From Candidatus Thorarchaeota archaeon (lineage in GTDB: Archaea; Asgardarchaeota; Thorarchaeia; Thorarchaeales; Thorarchaeaceae), in the NCBI GenBank assembly GCA_029855935.1, contig JAGSHN010000012.1:208869-272868 (forward strand): a DNA stretch of 64,000 bases, given 5' to 3'. Below, one piece after another: positions 19,731 through 45,276 of this stretch. Under the pieces are notes generated by a model. The model searched no databases. It saw only the letters and a list, made by a program, of their open reading frames with translations, and was not told the DNA's origin. Position numbers and translations under genes: made by a program. Each line of letters begins with the position of its first letter. The stretch's first letter is position 1.

Positions 19731-19797
19731 CTGGCCCACTACTTTTATTGGGTGGGGCTGTGAGCGTCACGCCTAGAATTGACCAGGAAGGATAGAA

Positions 19798-24252: not shown

Positions 24253-25083
24253 CTATCTGCGCAATACGCGCGTGGCTACCATCACCGCCACGACCACCAC
24301 AGCAACGACACCCACAACCACGAGAGGTAGCACTGGTCCAAGACCTGTTGCGGGCGTCACTATTCTCGCGAGTTCCAGGGTGAGAACATACGGTGTACCA
24401 AAAGAGTAGCTCGAATTCGCCCAGACAAGGACTCCAGATTCCGTGTCGTACGCCAGCGTGGTCCTCTGTGACTCGCCATACGGGGTCGGGTCCTGTTCAT
24501 AGTCAAAGACTATACAACTATAGGTGTGTCCCCGCACGGCGATGTCTTCGTATCTCGACTCCATAGTTCCATTCAGATAGTTTCCCTTCACTCTCGCGGC
24601 TGCTGCGTAGGCGGTCTCGTTCAGTGCATTGATACTCTTGCTGTCTGTCTCGATCACAAGGCCTGGGAAGAACTGAGTCTTGCCCCACACACCAAGGACG
24701 AGCTCTCTAGCGATGGAGGTGTCATTGGCATTCACTGTCAGGTTTCCAATCGTCAGAATGCCCTCAATATCATCAGTCACATTCTCAATTGAGAACACCA
24801 TCTTCTCACCGGGGGTTGTGAGCCACTTCTCGTCGCTCGACCATCCCCACGAGAACGGAACATCCGGGCAGTCTGTGACATTCCACTCGATCACAGTACC
24901 AGCACTGGCGCCAGAGCCTCCCTGAATCACCGGGCTATAACTCATCATCAGTGCCCTGCTGGGGATTGCAGGTGCAACCAGCATCACCACCAGCAGAGCG
25001 ACCAGAACAGAGCTAGTCGTTGTTCTCGACCTCAATTGCGTTTCCTCCTTCCGTACTGAATCAGCAGGATGAAGAGGCCCCAC
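24253..25083 (-). CDS. secreted beta-rich protein with N-terminal signal anchor and C-terminal TM + RVLRR tail
   Basis: N-terminal hydrophobic segment and N-glycosylation-like sequons (NVTD, NLTV, NDTS, NETA, NGTM). C-terminal …LPLVVVGVVAVVVVAVMVATRVLRR. Confidence 0.4.
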   Translation of the reverse strand: MGPLHPADSVRKEETQLRSRTTTSSVLVALLVVMLVAPAIPSRALMMSYSPVIQGGSGASAGTVIEWNVTDCPDVPFSWGWSSDEKWLTTPGEKMVFSIENVTDDIEGILTIGNLTVNANDTSIARELVLGVWGKTQFFPGLVIETDSKSINALNETAYAAAARVKGNYLNGTMESRYEDIAVRGHTYSCIVFDYEQDPTPYGESQRTTLAYDTESGVLVWANSSYSFGTPYVLTLELARIVTPATGLGPVLPLVVVGVVAVVVVAVMVATRVLRR

Positions 25084-26444: not shown

Positions 26445-27602
26445 TTGGAGACTGTAATGATGCCCGTCGCGCTGCTCCTCATAGACTGGGACTCGAAGAT
26501 TGGTGCCGTATTGAAGGCAAAGGTGCCAGCTGACTTTGCAGACTATTACAGGGAAGATCTCAACACAGAGATCATGAGGATATTCACCTCCCACGCAATG
26601 GGGGATGCGTCTGCAGGGTTCGCCTCACTGAGCGTCAGGATTGGGGGCGAGGAGTACAATGTCGCCTCCTACTACACTGGCATCGTGCGTGAAGAAGAAC
26701 AGTACTGCGTTTCCCTGCTGCTGGCACCGAACGAGGACCCCAAGGCCTATGAGGGTGCCCTGACGTCCGTCGTGTCACACATCACGAATGCAGTCGTGTC
26801 GATGACCGATGCGGAGCTCCAAGAGGAGCTGGAGAACACCTATCGACGTATCATCCGCTTGGCAGGGATGACCGATGAGAGTCGTCTGGCCCGTCTGTTT
26901 GCCGACGAGGTGACACGTGCGGTCTTTCCCAAGCTCTGGAAGGGCGGGGTCTCGAAAGAAGATCTTGAGGAATGGCTCAAGATGGTGACGGGTCTCCCGA
27001 GCATAAGTGTCGACTCTATCATCGCACCGTTCGAGGAGCTCGGCTTGGTGAAGACAGAGTGGGTCGATGAGATTGGTCGAACGTGCGTCTTCCTGATCAA
27101 GGACATCGAGATATTCCGTGCTCCACCTCTTATGGCGATGGAGGCTGCAAGCTCCATGCTCGACCCGGAGCTTGCCGCTGAGTACAAGACAGAGGTCCTA
27201 GAGTTCCTGACAGAATGGCAGAAGACGCCTGAGGACACGGTCGCCATAGCCGAGATACTGGCAGATCCAGACTGCTACGACGTACTCTCAGAGTTGCGCA
27301 GACGCCCTGTCAACCTTGCGGAACTAGAGGCCACACTGAAGATGATTCCCGCAAGGGACCTACGAATAGCAATTCAGAAGATGAAGAAGTATCGTGTCGT
27401 GACGGAGAAGCGACGCAAGGGTCCCTCTGGGGAGTATGACAAGTGGTTGTTCCTGCTCAACGACATCAGAGTGCGGCTGTTCTTCCCCGAGTACTTCCTG
27501 CGTACTCTCGTGTCTGACCTTGAGAAGAATCCGGACGATCCAAAGATGCGCCAGCTTGTGCAGCATCATCTCCGCCTATTGCGAGAGAATTTTCCGCGCT
27601 AG
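26445..27602 (+). CDS. hypothetical protein: N-terminal longin/roadblock-like domain + C-terminal tandem winged-helix-like modules
   Basis: N-terminal MPVALLLIDWDSKIGAVLKAKVP…YCVSLLLAPNEDP has a beta-beta-alpha-beta-beta pattern. C-terminal half has two wH-like segments (…WVDEIGRTCVFLIKD… and …KKYRVVTEKRRKGPSGEYDKWLFLL…). Confidence 0.35.
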   Translation: METVMMPVALLLIDWDSKIGAVLKAKVPADFADYYREDLNTEIMRIFTSHAMGDASAGFASLSVRIGGEEYNVASYYTGIVREEEQYCVSLLLAPNEDPKAYEGALTSVVSHITNAVVSMTDAELQEELENTYRRIIRLAGMTDESRLARLFADEVTRAVFPKLWKGGVSKEDLEEWLKMVTGLPSISVDSIIAPFEELGLVKTEWVDEIGRTCVFLIKDIEIFRAPPLMAMEAASSMLDPELAAEYKTEVLEFLTEWQKTPEDTVAIAEILADPDCYDVLSELRRRPVNLAELEATLKMIPARDLRIAIQKMKKYRVVTEKRRKGPSGEYDKWLFLLNDIRVRLFFPEYFLRTLVSDLEKNPDDPKMRQLVQHHLRLLRENFPR

Positions 27603-29132: not shown

Positions 29133-30953
29133 TTGATTCACAATACGTTCCTTGTACGAGAGTCGACGAAGGAGGTCTTGGCTCACACTAGGTACTGGCC
29201 GGTTGAGGTCGATGAGAAGGACCTTGAGGAGTTCATCCAGACACGCGCCGAGCTGATGAGTGCCGACGAGGAGATAGAGGAGATTCCTCTGATTCTTGGC
29301 GACCACAAGTTTCACGGCTGGCCCTGCGGTGATGACCTGCTCTTGGTGTTCGTCACCGACACGCGGGAGGACGAGCACGCAATATTCGAGCGAATGGAGA
29401 AGGCCGCCAAGTCGCTGAAGAACAGCATCAAGAAGCTGGGACTAGAGGAGACAATTGAGAAGTATGAGAAGATCATTGAGCCATCGGTCATCACCCGGCT
29501 GAAGATTGCACTGGTTGGCGAGGGTGGTGTGGGCAAGACGACAACTCTCCATCTGCTGTTGGGCGACACTCCTCCTACGCAGTACGTGCCGACAATTGCG
29601 CTCAATCTTGAGACTGTGGAGAACATCCGCTTTGGCAACTACTCACTCGTGCTCTGGGACTTTGCCGGCCAGGAGCGGTTCAGAAACCTCTGGAGGTTCT
29701 ATTTCCACGGCGCTGACGTGATCTTTCTCGTATGTGACTCTACCCTCAGGAACGTGCTGATAAGCAAGGACATACTGAAGCTCATCAAGCGTGACGCACC
29801 CAAGGTCCCAGTGTTTGCGCTTGCCAACAAACAGGACCTCCCGAACGCGATGAAGCCCGAGGTCATCCAGAAGATACTTGGCATACCGACCTATCCCATG
29901 GTCGCAATTGACAAGGAACGTCGGGATGAGATGCTACGTATTCTGATGAACGCAGCAGCCCAGTACGTCGGTGTGGCTCTTCCGGACCTGCCAACATCGG
30001 AGCTTCTCAAGTTCAGCGAGGAGGCTGCCGAGCAGGCCGCGGCGACGCCAAGCCTACGGGCAAGTTCAAAGGGAGCAGCAGTGGCGGCCGAAACGGGGGC
30101 GATTGACTCCGGAGCAGAAGATGAGGAAGAGGACTTTGGCGACATCGAGGTCGACGACCTTGAGACAATCGAGATAGTGGAAGAGGTACTCGTGGACGAG
30201 GAGGGCCACGTAATCGACGAGCTCTCCGATGAATACGAGGTTGTCGAGGAGGTTGTTGAGGAGGTCGACGAGGGAGTCTCCGTGTCAGAAGGGCAGGAAC
30301 CCGTTTCTATCGCATCAGCCGAGGAGACAAGCATGTCCGAAGAAGAGGGTGGGGTGGCCAGCAGCCGCGAGATTGCAAAGGCCATCATATCCGAGAGGTT
30401 GGACGCGGACGAGATCATAGAGGAGGAGCTAGAGCAGGCTCCGGATGATGCCCTGCAGAGCGCCCTTGAGGCCCTGTCCTCAGACGAGGTCCCTGCTAAC
30501 CACAGTGAGATGCCACCCCCTGTTGTGAGAGAGGAGGAGAAAGAGGAGCTGACGAAGATTCTTGGGCTTCTTGATGACAAGGCCCCAAGCTCTGAGGAAG
30601 AGGACGAACTCGCGCCCACCTCAGTTAGACCCGATGAGATTGAGGACTTCACCCGTGTTCTGGAATCACCCCCTGAGGCTGGCAAGGAGGAATCAGCGCC
30701 CAGTGAGGAGGAGGCCGAGTCTGTCTCTGCTGGTGAGGACAATGTTGGGGGACCGGAGTCCGCCTCTGCTCGTGAAGGTGATGTGGAGCTGGAGGAGTCG
30801 GCCCCTGCCGGTAATGAAGATGTGGACGAGGCCGAGTCTACTCCTTCCGGCCACGTAGATGTCGAACAAGAGGAGACTGCCCCTGCTGGTACCAAGGAGG
30901 CGACAGAGGACGACACAGACGACTACTACGACTATTTCGTTGATGATTGGTAG
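29133..30953 (+). CDS. multidomain small GTPase: N-terminal roadblock/longin-like domain + Ras/Arf-like GTPase + ~300-aa acidic disordered tail
   Basis: GTPase core IALVGEGGVGKTT (G1), PTI (switch I), WDFAGQERF (G3), ANKQDL (G4). ~120-aa N-terminal alpha/beta domain. The C-terminal region is extremely D/E-rich (…EEVVEEVDEG…) and ends DDYYDYFVDDW. Confidence 0.75.
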   Translation: MIHNTFLVRESTKEVLAHTRYWPVEVDEKDLEEFIQTRAELMSADEEIEEIPLILGDHKFHGWPCGDDLLLVFVTDTREDEHAIFERMEKAAKSLKNSIKKLGLEETIEKYEKIIEPSVITRLKIALVGEGGVGKTTTLHLLLGDTPPTQYVPTIALNLETVENIRFGNYSLVLWDFAGQERFRNLWRFYFHGADVIFLVCDSTLRNVLISKDILKLIKRDAPKVPVFALANKQDLPNAMKPEVIQKILGIPTYPMVAIDKERRDEMLRILMNAAAQYVGVALPDLPTSELLKFSEEAAEQAAATPSLRASSKGAAVAAETGAIDSGAEDEEEDFGDIEVDDLETIEIVEEVLVDEEGHVIDELSDEYEVVEEVVEEVDEGVSVSEGQEPVSIASAEETSMSEEEGGVASSREIAKAIISERLDADEIIEEELEQAPDDALQSALEALSSDEVPANHSEMPPPVVREEEKEELTKILGLLDDKAPSSEEEDELAPTSVRPDEIEDFTRVLESPPEAGKEESAPSEEEAESVSAGEDNVGGPESASAREGDVELEESAPAGNEDVDEAESTPSGHVDVEQEETAPAGTKEATEDDTDDYYDYFVDDW

Positions 30954-31933: not shown

Positions 31934-32881
31934 TTGAGCGACTTGAGCGATGGCAATGGGGTGATCACCCCACGGGTGGTACTGCTCCTCATTCTGTCGG
32001 TCTCTATGGTATCCAGTGCCAGTATCCTGATCCGACTCAGTACGTCCCCCCCTCTGGTGATAGTATTCTGGCGCACATTCTTGGGCGCTGTGTTGATGGC
32101 ATCGGTGGGACTGCTGAGGAGCGATCATCTTGGGTACGACAGGGCCGTCCTGAGTAGAAACTGGCGATGGCTTGTTGTGGTCGGAGTCATTCTCTGTCTT
32201 CACTTCTCAACGTGGTTCACATCTCTCTTTCTGACAACAGTTGCTGCCAGCGTGGTACTCGTCAATACATCTCCCATTCTCACCGGGGTCCTCTCGACGA
32301 TGCTGCTCGGAGAGCCCCTTGGTCGCCGTTCTTGGGCAGGCATTGTAGTTGCGGTTCTTGGCTCTGTACTGTTGGCCTGGGGTGACCTTGTTGCCTCGGG
32401 CCTTGGGGCTCTGACTGGTGACATCTTGGCTATGCTGAGTGCGCTGTTCCTGGCTGCCTACTTTATTGGGGGCCGCCGTTTCGCCTCCGACCTCCCTATT
32501 ACCGTATACACTACGATAGTCTATCTCACCGCCGCCTGTGCGACACTTGTCCTCTGCTTGCTCTCGGGGCTAGACGTCATAGTCACTGCACCGACTGAGA
32601 TACTCATCTTCGTCTGTCTCGCCGTGTTCCCGACCGCTCTCGGGCACTCTGTCAACAACTATCTTCTCACACTTGTGCCAGCCTACGTTGTCTCCTCAGC
32701 TGTTCTTGGTGAGCCAGTGGGGGCCAGCCTATTGGCAGTAGTGTTCCTCCAAGAGGTGCCCTCTGCCGTGACAGTGTTGGGGTTCGTCATCATTCTGTGC
32801 GGGGTCGCTATGGTGCTTGTGGACCTTGCGGCCCGCGAACGCGTGTCGGTGCTACCCCTTGATGACCCCAATCGGCCGTAG
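31934..32881 (+). CDS. EamA/DMT-family transporter
   Basis: 10 predicted TM helices in two 5-TM halves. Typical EamA composition. Confidence 0.75.
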   Translation: MSDLSDGNGVITPRVVLLLILSVSMVSSASILIRLSTSPPLVIVFWRTFLGAVLMASVGLLRSDHLGYDRAVLSRNWRWLVVVGVILCLHFSTWFTSLFLTTVAASVVLVNTSPILTGVLSTMLLGEPLGRRSWAGIVVAVLGSVLLAWGDLVASGLGALTGDILAMLSALFLAAYFIGGRRFASDLPITVYTTIVYLTAACATLVLCLLSGLDVIVTAPTEILIFVCLAVFPTALGHSVNNYLLTLVPAYVVSSAVLGEPVGASLLAVVFLQEVPSAVTVLGFVIILCGVAMVLVDLAARERVSVLPLDDPNRP

Positions 32882-34318
32882 GCGAACCACCTTTGTCGCT
32901 ATTCCTACGGTGTCCGAGACTCTGACGACCTCGTCGACATCCTTGTAGGCGCCGGGTGCCTCTTCTGCAATCCCAATTGCTTTTGGCGACTTGACAATTA
33001 TGCCCTCACGAGCAAGCTGTCTCTGGATCTCGCGGCCGTGGAACTTCGACACAGCCTTTCGTCTGGACATGAAGCGCCCCGCACCATGAGCTGTGGAGCC
33101 AAACGAGAGCTCCATACTTCTCTGGTTCCCCACGAGAATGTATGATGCTGTTCCCATCGTACCGGGGATTATCACGGGCTGTCCGATGCTCTTGTACTTG
33201 GGCGGAGTCTCTGGATGACCTGGGGGGAAGGCCCTAGTAGCGCCCTTCCTGTGCACAAGCACCTTTCTTCTCTTGCCATCGATGCCGTGCTCCTCTACCT
33301 TGCCGATGTTGTGGGCCACGTCATAGATCAGGTGCATGTCGAGGTCCTCTGGCGATGCGCCAAACACCCTGCCAAAGACCTCGCGTGTCCAGTGCATCAT
33401 GGCCTGCCTGTTGGCCCACGCAAAGTTGGCTGCAGCACTCATTGCGCCAAGGTAGGCCTGCCCCTCATCAGAGGTGACCGGGGCGCTGCAGAGCTCTCTG
33501 TCCGGGACGTGTACGTTGTACTTGCGCATAGCTTGCGTCATCAGCTTGATGTAGTCGCTACAGACCTGGTGGCCAAGTCCTCTCGAACCACTGTGTATCA
33601 TCACAGTGACCTGCCCGACGTGAGTGATGCCCATCGCCTTGGCCGTCTTCTCATCGTAGATCTCGTCCACCATCTGGACCTCAAGGAAGTGATTTCCGGA
33701 CCCAAGAGTGCCGACCTGACCCTTACCTCGCGCCTTTGCCTGTGACGATACCTTGGAGGCGTCTGCGATAGTGAGGTGACCCCCAGCCTCTGTGTGCTCT
33801 AGGTCCTCCTCCCAGCCGTAGCCGCTATCAACAGCCCATCTGGCACCACCGTTGAGCACCTCATCAACACCGCTTGCCCCGTGCAGCATTATCTTGCCTG
33901 TGCGGCCAACGCCTGTGGGCACATCCTTGAATAGCTGGTCTATCAGTTCTCTTATCCGTGGTCTGACATCCGATTCGTCAAGGTTCGTCCTCAGGACTCT
34001 CACACCGCAGTTGATGTCGTATCCGACACCACCGGGCGATATCACACCAGTCTCGTAATCAGTGGCCGCGACCCCACCAATGGGGAATCCGTAGCCCTGA
34101 TGACCATCTGGAAGGATTATACTTCTCTTGTAGATGCCGGGGAGACAGGCGACGTTGATGCCCTGCTCAAAGGTTGCATCCTGTCGCATCTTATTCATCA
34201 AGGCCTCCGAGGCATAGATGGTCACAGGAACCTTCATACATTGTTTTTCTCCCTTCGGAATCTCGTAGACGTTCTCGGCCACCTTTCTGATGTTCATCTC
34301 TCTGTCACTCCCAGCCAA
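32852..34318 (-). CDS. rtcB: RNA-splicing ligase RtcB
   Basis: …DINCGVR…, …GSGNHF…, …HSGSRGLG…, …HNIGK… blocks throughout. 488 aa with no intein. TTG start. Confidence 0.9.
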   Translation of the reverse strand: MAGSDREMNIRKVAENVYEIPKGEKQCMKVPVTIYASEALMNKMRQDATFEQGINVACLPGIYKRSIILPDGHQGYGFPIGGVAATDYETGVISPGGVGYDINCGVRVLRTNLDESDVRPRIRELIDQLFKDVPTGVGRTGKIMLHGASGVDEVLNGGARWAVDSGYGWEEDLEHTEAGGHLTIADASKVSSQAKARGKGQVGTLGSGNHFLEVQMVDEIYDEKTAKAMGITHVGQVTVMIHSGSRGLGHQVCSDYIKLMTQAMRKYNVHVPDRELCSAPVTSDEGQAYLGAMSAAANFAWANRQAMMHWTREVFGRVFGASPEDLDMHLIYDVAHNIGKVEEHGIDGKRRKVLVHRKGATRAFPPGHPETPPKYKSIGQPVIIPGTMGTASYILVGNQRSMELSFGSTAHGAGRFMSRRKAVSKFHGREIQRQLAREGIIVKSPKAIGIAEEAPGAYKDVDEVVRVSDTVGIATKVVRLRPIGVIKG

Positions 34319-34427
34319 GATTGCGTCTTCTTAATCGGCAATTGCTATAAGGCTTGTGACATCTCCCCTTTTCGTCTTCCGTATGAAGACCTGACCGCCC
34401 GAGAACTTGTAGGAGGTTGATAGCCAA

Positions 34428-35462
34428 GTGCCGAACGTCAGACTGACAGCACTTGTGACATCCCACGGCTGAAGCTGCAAGGTCCGGCAGGATGATCTCA
34501 CACGACTGCTCCAGCAGGCGGGGCTGCTACCAGAGGGCTCTGTGTGTCACGGTGGTATCGGTGACGATGCCGTGGTCAGGATCGTCAGTGACTCTCTCGC
34601 TGTCGTCGAGAATGTGGATGTCTTCACTCCGATTCATGACGATCCCTTTGTGCAGGGGCAGATAGTGGCCTGCAACGCCACCAATGACATCTTTGCGATG
34701 GGCGTCACCGATGTCCTGTCCCTTCAGGCGTTCCTCGCCCTTCCTAAGGACCTCCCTGAGGAGATCTCCGTGGGCGTACTTCGTGGCATGAGTGCCTTCG
34801 TGAGCGATCTTGGCGCGGAGGTGACAGGTGGTCAGACCATAACCAATCCGTGCCCTGTGTTTGGTGGCATCTGTCTTGGCATTGCTCAACCTGAGGAGAT
34901 TGTGTACTCCTCGGGTGCAAGGCCTGGTGACGTAGTCCTGCTGACCAAGCCCCTCGGCATCCAGCCAGCAATGAGGTCATATCGGGACCTGAAGGATCCA
35001 GAGAAGCGTTCTCCCCTTCTCGAGAGATTCTCTGAGAAGGACCTGCTGAGGATGCAAGACATCGCCGTGCGTGTGATGACGGGCAGCAACCTTCAGGTCG
35101 CGAAGGTGATGAGGGCGGTCGGTGTTGACGCGGCCACTGACATCACAGGCTTTGGCCTACTAGGTCACGCCAACAACGTGGCCGTACTCAGTGGTGTCGA
35201 CATAGTCATCGACGCAATGCCAGTGATTGCGGGCACGCTGGAGCTGGCCAGTTTCTATGGTCATCGGCTCGCGAGCGGCCACGGTGCCGAGACCGCAGGT
35301 GGAATGCTTGTCTGCGTCCCCGCGGATCGGGCGGAGCAGTTCACCAAACAGCTTGGTACGGAGGGACTTCCGTGCTGGACCGTGGGCAGGGTCTTGGCCT
35401 CCGACTCGCCCCGTGCGTATCTCGCAGAGGGCGTGCAGTACATCGAAACCGAGTTCCCGTGA
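34428..35462 (+). CDS. selD: selenophosphate synthetase SelD, selenocysteine-containing (in-frame TGA at 34470-34472)
   Basis: Body matches SelD/PurM-like (DDAVVRI…VDVFTPIHDDPFVQGQIVACNATNDIFAMG…). Reading upstream in frame from the tracked GTG (34542) gives VPNVRLTALVTSHG-TGA-SCKVRQDDLTRLL…, which is the SelD N-terminal (Sec/Cys)-x-C-K motif. GTG 34428 is preceded by GGAGG at 34412-34416. Confidence 0.75.
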
Positions 35463-35465
35463 GGG

Positions 35466-35518
35466 CGTCCGAAACCCGCAGGGCTGTGGCGCCTGAGGAG
35501 TTCCGCCGCAAGCGGACG
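35466..35518 (+). promoter_or_regulatory. candidate SECIS-like stem-loop in selD 3'UTR
   Basis: A 6-bp stem CGUCCG(35466-71)/CGGACG(35513-18) encloses an AAA bulge immediately 3' of the 5' arm and a GC-rich ~40-nt interior (…GGCGCC…). The fold was not computed. Confidence 0.2.
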
Positions 35519-35641
35519 GTTTCCTCCCCCTGACTCTGCATCAGTCTCCTCTTGGATGGATAGATTCAACGGCAAATCATTTAACACCCAGAAGTGTACG
35601 GGTTTCCAGAAAGGAACGAGCTCAGATTCAGGTGCAGTCAA

Positions 35642-36343
35642 ATGAAGATTGTAGTCACGGGGCCCCGGGCGTCGGGCAAGAGTCGTCTGATACATAACAT
35701 AACGAATGGTGCTTGCATTAACATTGAGCGTGGTGGGGTCACCATTGCTATGGATCACGGTGTGGCCGATGTTGATGGAATGACGGTCTTTCTCTTCGGT
35801 ACTCCTGGACTCCTTCGTTTCCGGACGATGCGCAAGATTCTGAGCTCAGGTGCTGACGGTATCATCTTTGTTGTGGACTCCAGCGATGCAGAGGCGGATG
35901 CACGTGCCAAGCTCTTCTTCAGGGAGATTGCGTTCTTTCTCCCTGGTGTTCCGTGCGTTGTTGCGGCAAACAAGCAGGATCTTGAGAACGCCCGATCTGT
36001 CGACAAGGTCCGAGAGAGTATGAAATTCCTCGCGGGGGTCCCGGTCATCCCGTGCTCTGCAGAGACGGGGCTCAACGTCGACAGCATGCTGCGCACCCTC
36101 CTGTATCTCACTATGATGCAGTGGAGTTCGGTCTTCGCCAAGTTCGCCGAGTACAGCGGCCGCAGTGATGGAATGAAGCGTCTGATGCAAGACCTCAAGA
36201 TGGAGCGTGAGCAGGTCGTCGGCTATCTTCGCAGGTTCGAGCTCCGCAAGATCCTCGATGTGAGCCTTGGCGACGAGCAGTTCACTGTTCGGGAGCCCGT
36301 GAAACCGATACTTGAGAATCCAGCACTCCTCATTCGTCGCTAG
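35642..36343 (+). CDS. MglA/Arf-like small GTPase with C-terminal extension
   Basis: G1 VTGPRASGKS, G3 variant FGTPG (TxPG as in MglA), G4 ANKQDL, G5 CSAETG. ~80-aa C-terminal helical/wH-like extension. Start chosen at MKIVVTG. Confidence 0.7.
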   Translation: MKIVVTGPRASGKSRLIHNITNGACINIERGGVTIAMDHGVADVDGMTVFLFGTPGLLRFRTMRKILSSGADGIIFVVDSSDAEADARAKLFFREIAFFLPGVPCVVAANKQDLENARSVDKVRESMKFLAGVPVIPCSAETGLNVDSMLRTLLYLTMMQWSSVFAKFAEYSGRSDGMKRLMQDLKMEREQVVGYLRRFELRKILDVSLGDEQFTVREPVKPILENPALLIRR

Positions 36344-36467
36344 GCGTGCTTGGCCTGTAGTTGTAGAAAGAATCAAAAGATGGCGTCGGGGCAACCTTCT
36401 CATAGCACCGGATGTGGCAGCAGTGGAAGAGAGCGAAGATGTAGTAGACCCAGCTGATCTCCTTGAG

Positions 36468-37280
36468 ATGGCAGCAGAGGCCAAGAACAAGGGTGACAGT
36501 CACGCCGCTGCACGCCTGTTCAATACTGCAGGAAACATCTACATGTCCGTTGGCGAATACGAGGACGCTCTGGAGGCCTTCCAGAGGGCCCTGCAGCTTT
36601 TCCGTGAGGTCAACGATGAGGCTAGCGTGGGCGACGCTCTCTACAATCTCGGTGCCGCGCAGATGAATCTTGAGAAATGGGAGGAGGCTGCCAAGTCCTG
36701 CGAAGAGGCGGTCAAGATATTCAAGCGGATATCGAATGACGCAGGATCGGCCGATGCGACATACGTCCTCGCCCTTGTGAAGAAGGGGATGGGTCAGTTT
36801 GAGGAGGCATTGGGCCTCTTCAAGAAGGTCCAGCGGGCTTACAAGGCTTTGGGAAACGACCAGGGCGTGGCTACGGTTCTGATGGACATAGGCAGTGCCT
36901 ACGCAGACAGAGAGGACTGGGTCAATGCTGAGAAGTTCTTCAAGAAGGCACTGAAGATATACCAAGAGCTCGAGGATGCTGCGGGAATTGGTGATGCATA
37001 CTCCCTACTCGGTGACATTGCTGAGGTGAACAACAATCAGAAGAAGGCGGCTGAGATGTTTGTAGAGGCCGCCGAGAGCTATCTCAAGGCCGAGCTGTTT
37101 GACGTGGCCCGTGAGGCTGTGGAGCGTGCAGAGGGCAAGCTCTGGGACATTCCGAAGTCCACCCGTCGGAGACTGAGGCGTCGCATCGATGACATAATTG
37201 ATGCTCTTCCCGAGGAGACCTCGACGGAGGAGGATGACACAGATCTCGACGATGACCTTCTCGACCTTGGTCTTGAGTGA
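36468..37280 (+). CDS. TPR-repeat protein
   Basis: ≥6 TPR-like 34-aa repeats (…AGNIYMSVGEYEDALEAFQRALQLF…, …LGAAQMNLEKWEEAAKSCEEAVKIF…). Acidic C-terminus EEDDTDLDDDLLDLGLE. Start uncertain (the ORF opens at 36312, overlapping the GTPase gene). Confidence 0.6.
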   Translation: MAAEAKNKGDSHAAARLFNTAGNIYMSVGEYEDALEAFQRALQLFREVNDEASVGDALYNLGAAQMNLEKWEEAAKSCEEAVKIFKRISNDAGSADATYVLALVKKGMGQFEEALGLFKKVQRAYKALGNDQGVATVLMDIGSAYADREDWVNAEKFFKKALKIYQELEDAAGIGDAYSLLGDIAEVNNNQKKAAEMFVEAAESYLKAELFDVAREAVERAEGKLWDIPKSTRRRLRRRIDDIIDALPEETSTEEDDTDLDDDLLDLGLE

Positions 37281-37446
37281 CTCGCCAAGAGTCGGTCAGC
37301 TGGTCTTCAGTCACGGGCCTATGGTGAGGTGTACGGCCGAACCCTGAAACATCGGTGTGTGTGGTCGGAGTGGGTCGGGTGCTCAAGAAAACTCTATTTG
37401 AGTTGGCCGACCATTACGTCCTGCTATCGCCAGGAGTGTACGTCAA

Positions 37447-40400
37447 TTGATTCGGCGGCCCCCCTTTCCCGTTCTTGTCATCTTCCTCGTCGTGATTGGT
37501 GGCATTGCGATGCTTCCGACTATGCCTCGCAACACTTCACCTTCGACAGACACCTCCAGTGTTTCGCCTCGTCTGGCCCAGTCGGTATTGGCATCGAACC
37601 GAACCCCTCTCAGATCATTGACGGCCGTCGTCAGCGATCCCACCTCCATCACGGACGAGCTCGCGTACATCGCCGCAGTGCCAACCGGTGTGTTCTATGC
37701 CGCAGGAAAACAATATGTTTCCCCTGTCCTGATGGTCGATGGCTCCCGGTCCGAATCGTGGCTTGTCGATGACTGGGTCGAATATCTTGAGACTGACGGG
37801 GGTACCACACAGTTCACGGTCATTGGGCCCTCCCCTAGTGGTGACATTGACTCCATCTGGGCTCGTCTTGGCGCCCAGCCGTTTCCGTGGATTCAGTCAG
37901 CCTCGCCGTACGATGTGGCTGCACAGCTTGCCGTCGCCAACTGGAGACACTCCGATACGGCCGTTGTGGCAGTTGTTGAGTCAGGCTTCAGTCCTCTGGT
38001 CACCACAAGCGACTCATCATCCTTCACGTTGTCAGACGACCCGATGACGGAGATTCATCCCTCGGTCACAGTCACGTCCTCGGACCCTGTTCAGGTCAAG
38101 TTCACTCCTCCAACTGGGACTGGCTGGATACAGGCATCATTCGATTGGACCGGGTCGGCATATTTCACTCACACACTCACCGACCCCAACGGGGTAATCG
38201 TAGACTACTCGGTCCGCAGCCAGACCTATCAGGAGCGATTCTCCTCCTACGTGGACCACCCAGTGCCGCTCCAGTTCTGGGTGCCGTGTACAGCGGAGGG
38301 CGAGTGGACGCTCACATTGTATCCTGAGGTGGACATCTCCTCTCCTGTTCCGCTCGATAGCACTATAGTCTTTCATCCCGGGCGTTCGGTGACCATCACC
38401 GTGCCAGCCAACGCACGATCTCTTGAGGTGAGTGCATCGTGGGATAATGCCGCGACCGACATCAACCTGGCACTGATCGATCCCACTGGGCATCTGAGTG
38501 CATGGGCCCCAGCTGGCAGTGTGATATCAAATCCTGGGTCAGAGAGCGCCTCTGTGGACTTTCCTATGCCCGGTGAGTGGACTCTCATTGCCGCATGGCT
38601 CAATGCTACAGGAGAGACAAACAATGGTCAGTTCGAGTGGGATATCACAACAATTGATGGAAACCTCGGAACCTACATGGAATCCGCCGCGAACGGTGCG
38701 GTCTTGGCCTCGCTCTTGAACGCACCTCTACTGTACGTCACTCCGTCCGATGTACCGGATGTCACTCTGTGGGCCATCCAGCGTCTGGGTGTTTCCTACC
38801 TCTTCCTTGTCGATCCGTCCTCCATGCAGACCTCCTCGCTGCTCTCGACACTGAGCGCAGAAGCGTTTGTCACCAATCTGAACAACTATCCCCTTGTTTC
38901 TCACTGGATTCGGGTTCTCTCCTCCACCTATGACGTCGTGGTGACAGCACCACTCGGTGCCGGCGACGAGCTCTTCGCAGCAGCCGCCTATTCAGGGGCG
39001 GTCCACGGCGCACCAGTGTTCTCGCTGTGTGGTGACGACAATCTCGTGACTACCCGTGCCGCAGCGACTTGGGTGCCATATCTCATCGGACCTGAGATTG
39101 ACGTCTATGTGACGAGCAGATACACGACGAGGACCGAGAACGGTTGGTACGACGAGCGAATACCCAACCGATACGCGATGGAGCTCTCCGCCACCACCTT
39201 CAAAGACTTTCTCGATGGCCGGAATGCGTACAATGAGAGTGAACCTCAGTCGGTCGTCATTCTCTCGCCTGTTGATGTGATCAAGCCGAGCTTTGATCGC
39301 TCTCTTCAGAGTCACTTCTCGCCTGGTCGAATCCCGGCCACGACCGCAGCACTGGCCACCGTGATGGTGGCGCGTGCGGCACTCCACCGTTTTCTGTTTC
39401 TTATCGCCGACTCTGCTGAAGACGCACTGGTGACTATGTATGCCTACACTCAGGACGCTGGCTTCGTGGATAACAACTTCAACTACTACGTAGTCGACCA
39501 GTACGAGAACTCGACACGTATCATTCAGGAGTCCGGTCTCACCGCTCTGTCGCACATTGGCGTGGATGAGGTGTTCTCAGCAATTGCTTCGCAGGTGTCA
39601 CTGTGGACAATCAGTACGCACGGGACACTGACTAGATATCCTACGGATCCGCCTGAGCGGCCAGGCGGCACGGGCCTCTTCTCTCTGCGTGATGTTGATG
39701 CGCCCTATGGTATGGAGACATCCTCCGAACGTGACGCGAATGGCGACCATCTCGTCAATCCAGTTCTCTTCGATCCCGAGGCCTCGCATCACGTCATCAA
39801 GAACACCGACGACCTTGAGGGTGCTGTGGACAACATCGGTTCTCCCATTGTGATCATCACTGCCTGCCTGCTGGGCGGTTCCCGGCTACCGCTGATGCTC
39901 ATGGAGCACGGTGCAGTCGGCGTTGTCGCCTCTCCGCGTACCGTCTATTTCCAGCCTGCTGCAATGCTGTCCCTCTTCTTGATGGACCGCCTGAGGGAGG
40001 ATGCTCCCATTGGTCAGGCGCTCAGCTATGCCGTACGAATGGTCTCAATCGACTATACGGACCCGTTGCCCTCAGGCGACCCACGCGACTACGCCAATCA
40101 GCATATTCTCTATGGAGACCCTGGGGTCAGGCTGTTCGCCCCTTCGACCGACCCGCACGTGCCCGCTGTCGACGCCAACACTCTGGATATCAGTGGTCAC
40201 AGACCGGGGCGTGGTCTACCACTTGTGGCGGCGGTCGCTGACAATACGACCCTTCCCACGCTGCTGGAGGGTCAGTCCGTGGATCACATCACCTACACCT
40301 CGTCGAACATCTCAGCTCTCTCACCGTGGATGTTCCTCCATCGCGCTGTCATCATCGAGCCTGACTACTCTGCCGCGCTTGCAGGCAGTCTCCAAGCGAT

Positions 40401-41286
40401 GTCCGTGTCGCTGCACGAGTATGTCCGCGGAGGAGGCGCGCTCGTTGTGATGGGAGTCACACCCGAGTCGACGTGGATACCCTGGCCTGTCTCATATGAT
40501 GGTTCCCAGACGGGTGAGATCATATCGATTGACGATCCTGGCCATCCTCTTGTCTCTCTACCGAACAGCATCCCCGAGAGTACTCCGTATGCGGGTGTTC
40601 TCACAGGCCTGTGGGAGAACTTCACAGTCGTGGCATCCACTTCAGACGGCCAGGGCGCAGTGATGGTGGCTGGAGTGATGGGTCACGGCAAGATTGCCCT
40701 GATGACCCTCAGGCCCACTGGGGACGCGCTGGCAGCACTAGCTCAGAATGTTGCAACATGGTATGTCCGGCCGTCAATCTTTCTCTCCTCTCTGTCCCTC
40801 AGCGAATACATCATCTGGGGTGGTGACAGAGTCTCGGTGCTGATTCACCTCCTTGATGGTGAGGGTCGTGGAGTGACGGGCGCCAGTATTCGTGCATCGA
40901 TAAACTCCTCAGATGTCAGTGCCTACGTATCGGAGACTGGCGACGGCTACTATCAGATACTGTTGGACGAGGGGTGGACAACTGCGCACCCAGGTGTCCT
41001 CACAATTCGTATTGAGGCCTCCAAGGAGGGCTATGACACTCTTACAGCCATCATTCCCGGCTTCATGTACATTCGTCCCTCGCCGTGGCTGGCCATAGGG
41101 ATTGTCGGCGCCGTCTTTGCCGGAATCATGGTCCTGTACGTATATCGGAAGCGGAAGAGGGGCGAGAGGGTCCTGCCGTCTCTTCGTCGCGGAAAGAAGT
41201 CGAGGCATAGGCCACCGAGAGAGGGCAAGAAGCGTCCCGAGAAGGCGGAGAAGGAGGAGGACTTGAAAGAGTTCTTTGGGGTGTGA
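37447..41286 (+). CDS. large surface protein (1279 aa) with putative clan-CD (caspase/CHAT/gingipain-like) peptidase domain, C-terminal TM anchor and polybasic cytoplasmic tail
   Basis: N-terminal signal/anchor MIRRPPFPVLVIFLVVIGGIAML. Candidate catalytic dyad after hydrophobic strands: …SLWTISTHGTL… and ~70 aa later …SPIVIITACLLGGS…. C-terminus …WLAIGIVGAVFAGIMVLYVYRKRKRGERVLPSLRRGKKSRHRPPREGKKRPEKAEKEE…. Confidence 0.55.
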   Translation: MIRRPPFPVLVIFLVVIGGIAMLPTMPRNTSPSTDTSSVSPRLAQSVLASNRTPLRSLTAVVSDPTSITDELAYIAAVPTGVFYAAGKQYVSPVLMVDGSRSESWLVDDWVEYLETDGGTTQFTVIGPSPSGDIDSIWARLGAQPFPWIQSASPYDVAAQLAVANWRHSDTAVVAVVESGFSPLVTTSDSSSFTLSDDPMTEIHPSVTVTSSDPVQVKFTPPTGTGWIQASFDWTGSAYFTHTLTDPNGVIVDYSVRSQTYQERFSSYVDHPVPLQFWVPCTAEGEWTLTLYPEVDISSPVPLDSTIVFHPGRSVTITVPANARSLEVSASWDNAATDINLALIDPTGHLSAWAPAGSVISNPGSESASVDFPMPGEWTLIAAWLNATGETNNGQFEWDITTIDGNLGTYMESAANGAVLASLLNAPLLYVTPSDVPDVTLWAIQRLGVSYLFLVDPSSMQTSSLLSTLSAEAFVTNLNNYPLVSHWIRVLSSTYDVVVTAPLGAGDELFAAAAYSGAVHGAPVFSLCGDDNLVTTRAAATWVPYLIGPEIDVYVTSRYTTRTENGWYDERIPNRYAMELSATTFKDFLDGRNAYNESEPQSVVILSPVDVIKPSFDRSLQSHFSPGRIPATTAALATVMVARAALHRFLFLIADSAEDALVTMYAYTQDAGFVDNNFNYYVVDQYENSTRIIQESGLTALSHIGVDEVFSAIASQVSLWTISTHGTLTRYPTDPPERPGGTGLFSLRDVDAPYGMETSSERDANGDHLVNPVLFDPEASHHVIKNTDDLEGAVDNIGSPIVIITACLLGGSRLPLMLMEHGAVGVVASPRTVYFQPAAMLSLFLMDRLREDAPIGQALSYAVRMVSIDYTDPLPSGDPRDYANQHILYGDPGVRLFAPSTDPHVPAVDANTLDISGHRPGRGLPLVAAVADNTTLPTLLEGQSVDHITYTSSNISALSPWMFLHRAVIIEPDYSAALAGSLQAMSVSLHEYVRGGGALVVMGVTPESTWIPWPVSYDGSQTGEIISIDDPGHPLVSLPNSIPESTPYAGVLTGLWENFTVVASTSDGQGAVMVAGVMGHGKIALMTLRPTGDALAALAQNVATWYVRPSIFLSSLSLSEYIIWGGDRVSVLIHLLDGEGRGVTGASIRASINSSDVSAYVSETGDGYYQILLDEGWTTAHPGVLTIRIEASKEGYDTLTAIIPGFMYIRPSPWLAIGIVGAVFAGIMVLYVYRKRKRGERVLPSLRRGKKSRHRPPREGKKRPEKAEKEEDLKEFFGV

Positions 41287-41379
41287 AATGCGCAAAATGA
41301 CCCTGTTCTGAGCATCTGGGGACAAGAAGATTTTATAGCATTGCTCGTGGAGATTCCATCTGCTCCGAGAGGTATTGGT

Positions 41380-41742
41380 ATGACGAGTCGCGTCGAGAAG
41401 ATCAATGCTGCAATCCGGGACTTCGACACTGTCCCAGGCGTGGAGGGCGCCGCCCTTGTCTCGCTCGATGGTCTAATGATTGCCTCAGCACTGCCCGAGA
41501 GTGAACAGGAGCGAGTGGCTGCAATCAGTGCAGCAATTCTCTCCCTTGGCGAGAAGGCGACAAAGGAGCTCTATCGTGGAACCCTTCAGGAGATATACGT
41601 GAAGGGGGACAAGGGCTACACCTTGATGACATCTGTTGGCGATACGGCACTGCTTCTCGTTCTTGCCAAGGCCGACGCTCAAGTGGGACTGATATTCGTC
41701 GATATGAAGCGTCTCGCCTCCAGCTTGGTGGAGATTCTCTGA
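41380..41742 (+). CDS. Roadblock/LC7 (MglB-like) domain protein
   Basis: MTSRVEKINAAIRDFDTVPGVEGAALVSLDGLMIAS…KGYTLMTSVGDTALLLVLAKAD is the canonical Roadblock pattern. GAGAGG RBS-like before ATG 41380. Confidence 0.7.
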   Translation: MTSRVEKINAAIRDFDTVPGVEGAALVSLDGLMIASALPESEQERVAAISAAILSLGEKATKELYRGTLQEIYVKGDKGYTLMTSVGDTALLLVLAKADAQVGLIFVDMKRLASSLVEIL

Positions 41743-41769: not shown

Positions 41770-43008
41770 CTATGATCTCACTCTGCTGGTAATCTCGTCG
41801 ACTATGCGACGCGCCACCTCTCTCTTGGGCGCAAGCTCGACCTTCTTGATCAGTCCCTCAGGGCCAACGATGACGACCTCGTTTGTGTCCGTGCCGAAGG
41901 CAACGCCTCTTCTTCTCTCATCGTTGGCCACCATCAGGTCACACACGCCCGCGTCGATCTTTTGCTTGGCACGACTCACCAGTTCCTCATCGCTGACACC
42001 GGACTCGACCTTGAATCCCACAATGAACAGGTCCGGATGAGTGGACCGCACCTCATCGATGATCTTCTTTGTCGGTACAAGGACCACCTCGTAGGGCTCG
42101 CCTGAGGGGCGTTTCCTGTCCTCTCGCTCGCGAGGTGTGAAGTCCAAAACGGCAGCTGCAGACACGAAGAGTGAGGCCTCTGTTCTCTCAAGGGCATCCC
42201 TGACGGCGGAGAGCATCTCCTCTGGCGTGTCGACCCTCACGGTCTCCACTGTGGCTGGCGGTTTCTCGCAGGTCGGGCCCAGCACCAACACCACCTCGCC
42301 ACCACGCAGGGAGATCTCACGTGCTATCTCAATCCCCATCTTCCCTGAGGACGGGTTTGTCACGAATCTGACCCTGTCTATCCAGCCACGTGTTGGTCCA
42401 GCAGTGACAACAGCTTTGACGCCCTGCATGTCGTTTGGCCCGAGTATGCGCAACACGTGTTCCAGTATTGTCTCGGTGTCCGGTATCTTTGCCTTGGCCT
42501 CCTCCATCCTTGGCGTCAGGACTGTGACACCGAAACGCCGCAGACGCTGGATGTTCTCGGTCACCGCTGGATGGTCATATAGCGACCTGTGCATAGCTGG
42601 GACGACAATGACAGGGATTCCAGCACCAATTGCTGAGGAGACGGTTGTGGTGACCGGTGTGTCGTCGATACCGTTAGCAATCTTGCCTATGGTGTTAGCA
42701 GTCGACGGCGAGACTATGACGAGGCTGGCTGCGTCATCGTGTTTGCCTGCGAGCGTGACATGTTCTATCTGTCCGGTCAGCTCCGTGACAACAGGATTGC
42801 CCGTCGCCCACTCCATCAGATAGGGGTGGATGATCCTCTGGGCTGTGGGGCTCATCACAACGTGAACATCGGCTCCGTGGCGCATCAACAGCCTTGCAAG
42901 TGAGGGACATTCCACAGCTGCGACGCTGCCTGTCACGCAGAGAACAATCTTCTGACCATCAAGTGAATGGCTCAGTGTTGAGGTGATTAGTTTTGACGTG
43001 TGTTCCAT
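41770..43008 (-). CDS. coaBC: bifunctional phosphopantothenoylcysteine decarboxylase / phosphopantothenate-cysteine ligase
   Basis: N-terminal flavoprotein KIVLCVTGSVAAVECPSLARLL…PAMH. C-terminal ligase VTAGPTRGWIDRVRFVTNPSSGKMG. Start set at MEHTSK…. Confidence 0.85.
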   Translation of the reverse strand: MEHTSKLITSTLSHSLDGQKIVLCVTGSVAAVECPSLARLLMRHGADVHVVMSPTAQRIIHPYLMEWATGNPVVTELTGQIEHVTLAGKHDDAASLVIVSPSTANTIGKIANGIDDTPVTTTVSSAIGAGIPVIVVPAMHRSLYDHPAVTENIQRLRRFGVTVLTPRMEEAKAKIPDTETILEHVLRILGPNDMQGVKAVVTAGPTRGWIDRVRFVTNPSSGKMGIEIAREISLRGGEVVLVLGPTCEKPPATVETVRVDTPEEMLSAVRDALERTEASLFVSAAAVLDFTPREREDRKRPSGEPYEVVLVPTKKIIDEVRSTHPDLFIVGFKVESGVSDEELVSRAKQKIDAGVCDLMVANDERRRGVAFGTDTNEVVIVGPEGLIKKVELAPKREVARRIVDEITSRVRS

Positions 43009-43311
43009 CCCACTCACACCTCTCTCTCTATCACCGACCCTGATAAAGTGAGCCCACCTGTTGAGTTGGCCTGCCTCTCTCCTCTCGGAATCCTTCAACC
43101 ACTATCACGTCATCTCACGTTTCTCTTAGACCTAGCACACGTGTTGGCAGGATCTCACACAATTCTTGGTGTTGGTCAGCTGGCGGTTAGCAAAGAATAT
43201 ATGCAGCTCAGATTCCTTGGCGATATGTTGTTGTGTCGCAATGTGTCCGCCCCAAGGCGTTTGATACCTCTCTATGTGTGCGGGGTGGGATAGTACAGCG
43301 ACTGTCGTCAG

Positions 43312-44160
43312 GTGGGTGCACATACTTTGGCTAATATGCCTGTGGACTGGCATTCGATACTATCTCGGTTTCCGTCCGAGAAGCGTGCCCGTTTCCAGGC
43401 ATATGCGAACACAATGGCCGAGATGGGTACTCCCACCCAGTCGCTCTTCATCCTTGACAGCGACAACGAGTTTGACACGTTCCTTCGTGACTTTGATGAG
43501 TTTCTGACAGTCATCGGCAACATGCCTGAGCGTGGGCGCCCATATCACGTTCTGAAGATTGGCTATGACGGGGACATGCTCGACGACCTGTTTCGCCTTG
43601 TTGTCTCGGAGGAGGCCAGTAGCTTCCATCCTGCAGAGCTCGATGCCAGTCTATTGTATTCGAAGCAGGCAATCTTCCAGCACCTATACCAAGTCGTTTC
43701 AAAGAGGAAATTCCTGATATTTCACATCACAGAGTTTCCGCTCGCCTATTACTTTGAGACGGCTGTGGCGGTGGACGTCGAGGAACTCAGTGATGTGATG
43801 GACCCTGCCACTCACGACCAGACAATCGTACGGTACCTCAATGACCTACGTACGAAGGGGGCCGAGGAACACCGCCGCACGTACAGCTTCTTCTACAGGA
43901 TCAGCACGTCCCTACTTATGGAACTGTCCAATGCCTTTCTTGTCGTTCCGACAGCAGGCATGTATCGCCACTTTGTTGTTTCAAGCTGGCGGACCCAGAC
44001 GCTACTACTGGGCTTCAGTCCCCTCACGTGGAGCTCTGGAAGCTTCAATGTCTACGATCTCAGCGGCAGGGACATCGATGCCCGGTGGGCCTATCCTGCT
44101 CCTCTGACCGATGACCCCCGTGAGAAGGGCTACACAAGCCTCGTTCCCATTGAGCGTTGA
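43312..44160 (+). CDS. hypothetical protein embedded in CoA-biosynthesis cluster
   Basis: 282-aa ORF with no recognisable motif. Lies between divergent coaBC and the pantoate-kinase-like gene. Confidence 0.3.
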   Translation: MGAHTLANMPVDWHSILSRFPSEKRARFQAYANTMAEMGTPTQSLFILDSDNEFDTFLRDFDEFLTVIGNMPERGRPYHVLKIGYDGDMLDDLFRLVVSEEASSFHPAELDASLLYSKQAIFQHLYQVVSKRKFLIFHITEFPLAYYFETAVAVDVEELSDVMDPATHDQTIVRYLNDLRTKGAEEHRRTYSFFYRISTSLLMELSNAFLVVPTAGMYRHFVVSSWRTQTLLLGFSPLTWSSGSFNVYDLSGRDIDARWAYPAPLTDDPREKGYTSLVPIER

Positions 44161-44270
44161 GCTCTGCTGCATTGTTCTGTCTGTGCGAATCAGCCGGCCC
44201 GCCGCTCAGGCGGCTCTAGGTCCTCTCACTACCGATGCGACGATGCGGTCCACACTGTCGCACCAGCTGA

Positions 44271-44320
44271 TGTATATATATTATATATCCAGCGAGTCCT
44301 GTATGTAGAAAATCTATATA
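44271..44320 (+). promoter_or_regulatory. AT-rich promoter-like region (TATA-box candidates) upstream of pantoate kinase gene
   Basis: TGTATATATATTATATAT (44271-44288) and AAAATCTATATA (44309-44320) form a conspicuous AT island in a GC-rich genome, 20-70 nt upstream of ATG 44341. Confidence 0.35.
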
Positions 44321-44340
44321 CCCGCCCTCACTGAGCAAGT

Positions 44341-45276
44341 ATGGAACAAGACTTGACCGGCACTATACTTCAGGCACAGGCGTTCGTCCCCGGTCATATC
44401 ACGGGCATCTTCCGCATATTTGATGACTGCGCGGACCTGCTCCGTTGCGGATCGAGAGGCGGAGGCTTCTCGGTTGCCGTGGGGACGAGGACGACGGTCG
44501 TGCTTGAGCCTGAGGTCCCCAGCAAGATTGTGGTGCGATACAACGGAGAAGATGTTGACGCCCCGGTTACCACGACTGTGGTGAGGGAGATGTTGAAGGC
44601 CTACAATGTGGAGGCAAGGATTCGGGTAGATCATGACTCTGACCTGCCCATAGGAGTCGGCTTTGGTGCCTCCGGCGCTGGGGCCCTCGGTACCGCTCTT
44701 GCTCTTGGTTCGCTTCTCGACAGCGACATTGACATAGTCGCAGCCGGTCAGTACGCCCACAGAGCAGAGGTCGTCAATCACACGGGATTGGGCGATGTAA
44801 TTGCCCAGACTGTCGGAGGGGTTGAGGTCCGGACGGAGCCTGGAGCGCCAGGCGTCGGCAAGGTCACGAGGGTTTCATACCCGGAGGATCTACGCGTCGT
44901 GCTTGCTGGAGCTGAGGGGCTCTACACGAGGGACGTGCTGACCAATCCCGAGAGCCGACAGAGAATCAACGATGTGGGCGACACGCTCCTGAGGTCACTT
45001 CTTCGACAGCCCACCTTTGAAGCACTCATAGATGTGTCCAAGGAGTTCGCCCTGTCCACAGGGCTGATGACAGAACGCGTGAGGTCTGCGCTTGAGGAAC
45101 TCTGGGACATAGGTCTCGACGCATCAAGTATGGTAATGCTCGGCGATTCTGTCTTCTGTGTCTGTGACCCGTCGGAGACGGAAGTGGCAGAGCGTGTCCT
45201 CTCAGAGCACTGGGACAGTTCCCTCATCGCAGTGACATCGATTGCTACGAATGGCGGAGGCCTGATTGGACCGTGA
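44341..45276 (+). CDS. GHMP-family kinase, probable pantoate kinase (archaeal CoA pathway)
   Basis: GHMP motif LPIGVGFGASGAGALGTALAL. ~310 aa. Immediately followed (4-nt overlap) by a phosphopantothenate-synthetase-like gene and panE. Confidence 0.6.
   Translation: MEQDLTGTILQAQAFVPGHITGIFRIFDDCADLLRCGSRGGGFSVAVGTRTTVVLEPEVPSKIVVRYNGEDVDAPVTTTVVREMLKAYNVEARIRVDHDSDLPIGVGFGASGAGALGTALALGSLLDSDIDIVAAGQYAHRAEVVNHTGLGDVIAQTVGGVEVRTEPGAPGVGKVTRVSYPEDLRVVLAGAEGLYTRDVLTNPESRQRINDVGDTLLRSLLRQPTFEALIDVSKEFALSTGLMTERVRSALEELWDIGLDASSMVMLGDSVFCVCDPSETEVAERVLSEHWDSSLIAVTSIATNGGGLIGP

Follow-up and report, generated by a model that had tools for sequence, protein, structure and literature searches.

A Thorarchaeota selenophosphate synthetase gene with a probable selenocysteine codon and a putative eukaryote-like SECIS element overlapping its stop codon

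The window analysed here is a 64,000-nucleotide stretch of contig JAGSHN010000012.1 from a Candidatus Thorarchaeota archaeon. The gene in question is selD, encoding selenophosphate synthetase, which lies on the plus strand with an in-frame TGA near its 5′ end and a putative selenocysteine insertion sequence (SECIS) element at its 3′ end (Table 1). A first-pass annotation, made from the sequence without database searches, had proposed that a complete selD is masked at this place by a truncated open reading frame (ORF) call and that the TGA encodes selenocysteine (Sec). The layout it gave is read directly in the sequence: from GTG 34428 there are 14 sense codons, VPNVRLTALVTSHG (V-P-N-V-R-L-T-A-L-V-T-S-H-G), followed by the TGA at 34470-34472, after which the frame runs through S-C-K-V-R-Q-D-D-L into the called ORF with its GTG at 34542 and on to the stop TGA at 35460-35462. 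An in-frame TAG is found six codons 5′ of GTG 34428, which is therefore the only possible start before the first TGA. The GGAGG ribosome-binding site described ahead of the GTG was also located, at 34412-34416, and is kept in relatives, while the product is 344 amino acids (aa) long and not 345 aa as first stated.

With the residue at the TGA, U15, replaced by Cys for profile scoring, the 344-aa product matched the SelD equivalog NCBIfam NF010705 with 309.5 bits (cut-off 291) over positions 5-344 of the 345 in the profile, and TIGR00476 with 219.1 bits (cut-off 125). The product contains the Pfam domains AIRS (PF00586) and AIRS_C (PF02769), and its closest PDB matches are human SPS1, Leishmania SelD, E. 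coli SelD, and A. aeolicus SelD. A masked, complete selD is thus what the locus holds. Pairwise HMMER alignments place U15 on E. coli Cys17, C17 on C19, and K18 on the catalytic Lys20, in agreement with the earlier suggestion that U takes the place of the first Cys of the E. coli motif; U15 is also aligned with residue 13 of A. aeolicus SelD, a Sec that was Cys in the crystallised construct, and with Thr29 of human SPS1. The 306-aa ORF from GTG 34542 would be devoid of the whole catalytic loop, and this call is an annotation artefact. The bases from 34380 to 35560 are identical in two independent assemblies, L001 (ENA ERZ23491057 scaffold_1, 473 kb) and L002 (Logan SRR13622960), which makes a sequencing error at the TGA, a possibility raised at the outset, unlikely.

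When one genome of each GTDB species was scanned, 66 selD loci were obtained, 58 of them in Thorarchaeota-labelled or similar metagenome-assembled genomes (MAGs). The SelD proteins of these 58 loci (hereafter Thor-type) are 60-74% identical to that of the window and none is identical, so that the source of the window, a Thorarchaeia-like Asgard archaeon, is not among the species representatives; with a SelD only 60-73% identical to the nearest of these, it forms a lineage of its own. At the homologous codon, 64 of 65 related loci have TGA, and the Archaeoglobi locus has TGT. Codon-position variability, defined as the fraction of the 58 Thor-type sequences that deviate from the majority base at positions 1/2/3, is 0.13/0.05/0.33 in the 14 codons 5′ of the TGA and 0.12/0.09/0.36 in the 11 codons 3′ of it, compared with a flat 0.51/0.46/0.44 in the 42 nt before the start, taken as a non-coding control. 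The coding-type pattern 5′ of the TGA therefore indicates that purifying selection acts on the upstream peptide just as it does on the SelD body. About 55 of the 58 Thor-type loci start with GTG, several of them with a stop codon directly 5′ of it, and GGAGG precedes the conserved GTG by 9-12 nt in practically every one of the 57 related loci. Of the 120 closest database homologues, all but two have been cut down to 288-326 aa, with starts that do not agree (118 entries); the two exceptions, P0003 and P0009, are full length and carry Cys at the Sec position. Cys is also present there in L065 and L068. As an ordinary stop, TGA is used more often than any other codon in the window, closing 27 of its 44 Pfam-supported ORFs, and the code is therefore not reassigned genome-wide.

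The putative SECIS element begins 15 nt inside the selD coding sequence (CDS), at 35445, so that the last six codons make up its 5′ half, and the UGA at 35460-35462 is both the stop codon of selD and part of the GUGA core. Its sequence fits the kink-turn (K-turn) pattern exactly, with UCC/GGA as the C-stem, the bulge C-G-U, the G.A/A.G tandem, and helix II, which comprises 7 bp with no mismatch and two G.U pairs; the sheared geometry of the G.A pairs is predicted from the K-turn consensus. An extra hairpin is situated between the C-stem and helix I and directly abuts the latter. The first-pass annotation had described an extended imperfect stem enclosing an AAA bulge in this region, with the general look of an archaeal SECIS. 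The region does contain a conserved structure, AAA bulge included, and the place and the A-rich bulge were well chosen; the fold is not a simple long imperfect stem, however, and both the class (K-turn type II) and the boundaries, with a start at 35445, differ from what was suggested.

Table 1. Coordinates of selD and of the parts of its putative SECIS element in the window.
Feature	Position	Strand	Remarks
Shine-Dalgarno-like GGAGG	34412-34416	+	11 nt 5′ of the start codon; read directly
Full-length selD (selenophosphate synthetase) CDS	34428-35462	+	344 codons including predicted Sec15, plus stop
GTG start codon	34428-34430	+	sole start between the in-frame TAG and TGA
Predicted Sec codon, UGA, codon 15	34470-34472	+	homologue alignment, conservation
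Gene-caller GTG of the 306-aa ORF (database entry P0001)	34542-34544	+	artefact
Putative SECIS, Asgard eukaryote-like type II, possibly a three-way junction	35445-35523	+	covariation, RNAalifold, model R1
Helix I	35445-35451 GAAACCG with 35517-35523 CGGUUUC	+	seven pairs; 5′ strand in Glu-Thr-Glu codons
Predicted K-turn C-stem	35455-35457 UCC with 35497-35499 GGA	+	5′ strand in Phe-Pro codons; covariation, RNAalifold
3-nt bulge C, G, U	35458-35460	+	followed by G35461 and A35462 of the GUGA core
Core, putative sheared pairs	G35461, A35462 facing A35496, G35495	+	G.A and A.G
Helix II (upper stem)	35463-35469 GGGCGUC with 35488-35494 GGCGCCU	+	covariation
A-rich bulge CGAAA	35470-35474	+	apical part spans 35470-35487
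Ministem CCC/GGG	35475-35477 with 35481-35483	+	loop GCA; 3′ bulge CUGU
3′ GA of the SECIS core	35495-35496	+	conserved in relatives
Extra hairpin UCCGC-CGCAA-GCGGA	35502-35516 (35502-35506 with 35512-35516)	+	loop CGCAA

The structure is carried by covariation among the 3′ ends of the 58 Thor-type selD genes, which were aligned with MAFFT without structural input. In this alignment, 90.3% of the cells are paired, as against 29.5-43.7% when the partners are slid by 1-3 columns; double-sided changes occur in 17 of the 23 SECIS pairs, and none of 500 shuffles was as good. RNAalifold, run blind, recovered the same four helices. Helix I is 99.8% paired, with three compensatory pairs (GC/AU, AU/GC, and CG/UA), and the C-stem is 98.9% paired, with one compensatory change from C-G to U-A in L029. 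All eight modelled columns of helix II show double-sided changes, and its strands are complementary across species though their sequence is not conserved. The five pairs of the extra hairpin are 96.2% paired and all five show double-sided changes, with N-G-C-R-A as the loop consensus. The UGA of the core is invariant in all 58 sequences, the 3′ GA is present in 56 (AA in L039, UA in L053), and the apical pattern AAAC-CC...GG is kept in nearly all relatives. AA core variants are reported for other Asgard genes, and the UA of L053 could be either genuine or an error. TGA closes every Thor-type selD gene and follows an A, a G, or (once) a C, and non-Thor selD loci mostly end in TAA. A covarying, SECIS-like element is thus found at the 3′ end, as the earlier reading of the locus needed. 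We tentatively suggest, though we hold it to be rather doubtful, that the selD SECIS of this clade is a three-way junction, in which a near-canonical K-turn is combined with a clade-invariant 5-bp NGCRA hairpin stacked on helix I, and not a two-helix hairpin.

A pattern scan of both strands of the window for type I/II SECIS architecture found the selD element as the only one at a gene end, with a few others inside coding regions. One candidate of another kind, a match to the whalefall-1 RNA on the minus strand at 35521-35563, scored 19.6 bits against a gathering threshold of 37 and is most likely due to chance.

Two Cys-form orthologues of selD, L069 (P0003; 3001-4041) and L070 (P0009; 598-1692), lie in the same synteny as the Thor-type genes. 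L069 has a TAG stop, an unrelated 3′ sequence, and no match to R1, a covariance model trained on the 58 aligned 3′ ends; L070 has kept its AUGA end and reaches 53 bits with R1, but helix I, the C-stem, and the ministem all contain mismatches. An element that serves Sec insertion, and is eroded once Sec has been replaced by Cys, would be expected to behave in this way, and the two genes together look like a snapshot of a Sec-to-Cys conversion. The selD loci of Helarchaeota, Bathyarchaeia, Archaeoglobi, and Halobacteriales gave no match to R1 at E ≤ 10, which implies other signals, or none, in these lineages. The Helarchaeota and Bathyarchaeia genes (L060-L064 and L067) have TGA at the Sec codon and TAA at the end; one of the Bathyarchaeia genes with a TGA Sec codon is located on the complete 3.05-Mb Bathyarchaeota chromosome OY970340.1. 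Sec use in Bathyarchaeota has already been reported (cited in PMC9499178).

Taken together, the comparative evidence makes it very probable that the selD product is itself a selenoprotein, in which UGA-15 is Sec guided by the 3′ SECIS. Several results weigh against this conclusion. R1 scores 80.7 bits at 35443-35526, its only significant match and without a second copy in the window, but the window sequence is among the 58 training rows and the score is not independent. When the single sequence 35460-35560 is folded, its minimum free energy is no better than that of shuffles (z = 0.69) and the pairing differs from the conserved structure; the support for the 3′ structure accordingly comes from the alignment's covariation rather than from single-sequence folding. 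The covariance-model search for a known SECIS, which the first-pass annotation had recommended, returned no Rfam SECIS family at E ≤ 10 in 35400-35600 and none at the gathering threshold in the window. No tRNA-Sec was found in the window by ARAGORN or Rfam, which gave one tRNA-Gln only, and no EFSec, PSTK, or SepSecS was found among its ~55 ORFs by Pfam and NCBIfam. The absence of Sec machinery from the 64 kb would suit a TGA that is a true stop, with the 306-aa protein from GTG 34542, as given by gene callers, for a product and the 14 codons upstream as an unrelated leader or mini-ORF. However, the coding constraint across 58 species covers both these 14 codons and the 23 that separate the TGA from GTG 34542, together they encode the SelD loop that is indispensable and aligns to Cys17 and Lys20, and GGAGG and GTG are kept at the upstream site, whereas the downstream start is not conserved, as the spread of called lengths (288-326 aa) illustrates. 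We consider a true stop very unlikely.

A pseudogene, or a TGA produced from TGC or TGT by an assembly or sequencing error, is less probable still. Such an error would take a single base, and Cys-form orthologues do exist, but the same bases are seen in both assemblies, the TGA recurs in 64 of the 65 loci, and the ORF is otherwise intact, matches the profile over its full length, and has a conserved SECIS alongside; the comparative data effectively refute this reading. The remaining alternative accepts that the UGA is translated but has it read through without Sec, for example as near-cognate Cys or Trp, the 3′ structure serving mRNA stability, termination, or L7Ae-mediated regulation. Huang et al. 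(2024, PMC11227280) report no SBP2 in Asgard genomes, which would leave room for such a role, as would the lack of an Rfam SECIS match and the recognisable element kept by the Cys-form L070. Against it, the UGA falls exactly on the Sec/Cys catalytic position, and the GA_GA core, the A-rich bulge, and the ministem are the defining features of Asgard and eukaryotic SECIS elements in the published descriptions. Neither the element nor the UGA stop survives in the Cys-form L069, the copy in L070 is mismatched, and Sec machinery is reported in 77% of Thorarchaeia genomes (Huang et al. 2024, PMC11227280). Read-through without Sec thus seems to us very improbable, about as much so as a true stop, and decoding of UGA-15 as Sec is the reading we adopt.

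Under Sec decoding, translation would start at GTG 34428, and UGA-15 would be decoded by Sec-tRNA(Sec) and EFSec, which would put Sec into the glycine-rich catalytic loop at the N-terminus (SHG-U-SCK), next to the catalytic Lys18. Recoding would be directed from ~990 nt downstream by the K-turn SECIS at 35445-35523, with its helix I, 3-bp C-stem, 3-nt bulge, tandem G.A/A.G, 7-bp upper stem, A-rich bulge, ministem, and extra hairpin. The terminal UGA is presumably read as a stop because it is buried in the SECIS or too close to it, in line with a minimal-distance argument of Mariotti et al. (2016, PMC4989117). Terminating ribosomes would have to melt helix I and the C-stem each time, and the SECIS would therefore need to refold between rounds. 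L7Ae and an extension of EFSec are candidates for the SECIS-binding factor. Autoregulation through Sec-SelD, as the first-pass annotation proposed, might operate here in response to the selenium supply; the suggestion is reasonable and has been made before in the literature.

No further known selenoprotein family was found among the ~55 ORFs by Pfam and NCBIfam, and an elongation factor (EF)-like ORF at 52120-54333 is of the EF-2/EF-G type. The ORF at 47739-48863 on the minus strand encodes a class V pyridoxal phosphate enzyme (Pfam Aminotran_5, 145.8 bits), which had been put forward as a selenium-delivery partner. We find no link to selD: its scores stay far below every NCBIfam cut-off for a cysteine desulfurase or Sec lyase (SufS 122.9/475, CsdA 80.7/607, and SclA 40.6/525), leaving it a sub-threshold SufS-like protein, and it lies on the opposite strand, 12 kb and ~10 genes away, beyond a cluster for coenzyme A (CoA) biosynthesis.

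Around selD, the order RtcB (minus strand), selD, a 233-aa Ras/Arf-like GTPase (35642-36343), a tetratricopeptide repeat (TPR) protein (36312-37280), and a 1279-aa protein (37447-41286) extends over 32852-41286 of the window. The same order is kept in at least 51 Thor-type loci (L003-L059) and in the Cys-form L069 and L070. With 72-85% identity, the small GTPase is more conserved than SelD (60-73%). Between the SECIS and the GTPase gene, at 35570-35589, lies CGGCAAATCATTTAACACCC, which is probably the promoter of the GTPase with a B recognition element (BRE) and TATA box; a near-verbatim motif, ACGGCAAACCATTTAAC, occurs 3′ of selD in L031, L042, L045, L048, L050, and L051. Elsewhere in the window, proteins of the eukaryotic-signature type are encoded at 1258-1731, 1816-2364, 16586-17434, 29133-30953, 41341-41742, and 48962-49873, a set that fits an Asgard origin and comprises proteins with TRAPP-like, V4R, PCI, and Roadblock/LC7 domains as well as two GTPases, one of the Arf/Roc type with 591 aa and one that is Arf-like. 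The archaeal CoA-biosynthesis cluster occupies 41770-47062, with a CoaBC-like flavoprotein/DFP (minus strand), a pantoate kinase of the GHMP family whose NCBIfam match is sub-threshold, a phosphopantothenate synthetase (PPS_PS), and a ketopantoate reductase. For seven sizeable ORFs (15673-16245, 18942-19739, 24253-25083, 26445-27602, 43312-44160, 59191-60342, and 62639-63241), neither Pfam nor NCBIfam gave a match at E ≤ 0.001.

The practical outcome is the correction of a systematic mis-annotation, seen in the truncation of 118 of the 120 closest database homologues at this same UGA, and the marking of the organism as a probable Sec user. Sec-SelD, eukaryote-like Asgard SECIS elements, and a stop codon doubling as the SECIS core are already published, and the added value in that respect is small. 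What is added is a model of the Thorarchaeia selD SECIS at base resolution, tested by covariation and including the extra hairpin, together with two natural Sec-to-Cys controls, and these could guide reporter work on how K-turn SECIS elements are read in archaea without SBP2. If the extra hairpin is undescribed and required, it could dock the archaeal SECIS-binding factor and could explain why the selD SECIS differs from those of other Asgard selenoprotein genes.

Compared with known systems, E. coli SelD (PDB 3u0o) shares the fold and the catalytic loop but has Cys17 in the place of Sec and lacks a SECIS; in bacteria, the Sec system relies on SelA and SelB. Eukaryotic SEPHS2 carries Sec at the homologous residue, and its type II SECIS, bound by SBP2, has the GA_GA quartet, the A-rich motif, and the ministem in the 3′ region with a reach of ~1 kb. 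In contrast to that element, the one in the window has an upper stem of only 7 bp, overlaps the CDS and the stop, and gives no match to Rfam SECIS_1 (RF00031), and no SBP2 is known in Asgard archaea. Sec-SelD of Methanococcales and Methanopyrus belongs to the same NF010705 equivalog, is archaeal, and has its SECIS 3′ of the gene. At its apex, the window element has GAAA and then three C-G pairs, similar to the GAA / 3xGC feature of the euryarchaeal SECIS, which is defined by a GC-rich lower stem and a 3-bp strong-pair (S-S) upper stem with an asymmetric GAA_A bulge separating the two. The Methanococcales type was nevertheless rejected for the window element, whose 3′ bulge side is CUGU, without the required single A, and which has the GA_GA K-turn core; euryarchaeal elements lack this core and the C-stem in most genes, whereas the window element has both.

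The nearest counterparts are the Sec-containing SelD proteins of Asgard archaea. Mariotti et al. (2016, PMC4989117) describe a Sec-containing selenophosphate synthetase in Lokiarchaeota with a distinct type-II-like SECIS, and note that the SECIS may overlap the CDS, with an AUGA core doubling as the UGA stop. In the survey of more than 400 Asgard genomes by Huang, Xiao and Zhang (2024, PMC11227280), SelD is the most widespread Asgard selenoprotein, the Sec trait is present in 77.4% of Thorarchaeia, SBP2 is absent from Asgard genomes, and Asgard selD genes mainly have SECIS elements resembling the eukaryotic type II, those of Thorarchaeia often with a GUGA_GA core, a [U/A][A/G]AA bulge, and a GAG_CUC lower stem. 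Type II is defined there by the core 5′-GA_[G/A]A-3′, an upper stem of 7-15 bp with ≤2 mismatches, a bulge of 4-12 nt, a ministem of 2-8 bp, and a loop of 2-6 nt, and the window element agrees with every one of these values. The published models cover the core, the upper stem, the apex, and a short lower stem, and the article text contains neither the 15-nt extra hairpin nor a near-canonical K-turn drawn from Phe-Pro-stop codons; a literature search combining SECIS, Asgard, and three-way junction likewise returned nothing in article text, and the extra hairpin and the three-way junction are possibly undescribed. In all other respects, the window gene agrees with the published Thorarchaeia and Lokiarchaeia genes: the UGA is at the catalytic position, the SECIS is of type II with a ministem, its core is the GUGA_GA given as typical of Thorarchaeia selD, its bulge fits [U/A][A/G]AA and its lower stem GAG_CUC, the UGA stop overlaps the core, and the database entries are likewise truncated. 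Nothing essential sets the window selD apart from them, and it is a further case of the Sec-SelD with a eukaryote-like SECIS already described for Thorarchaeia and Lokiarchaeia.

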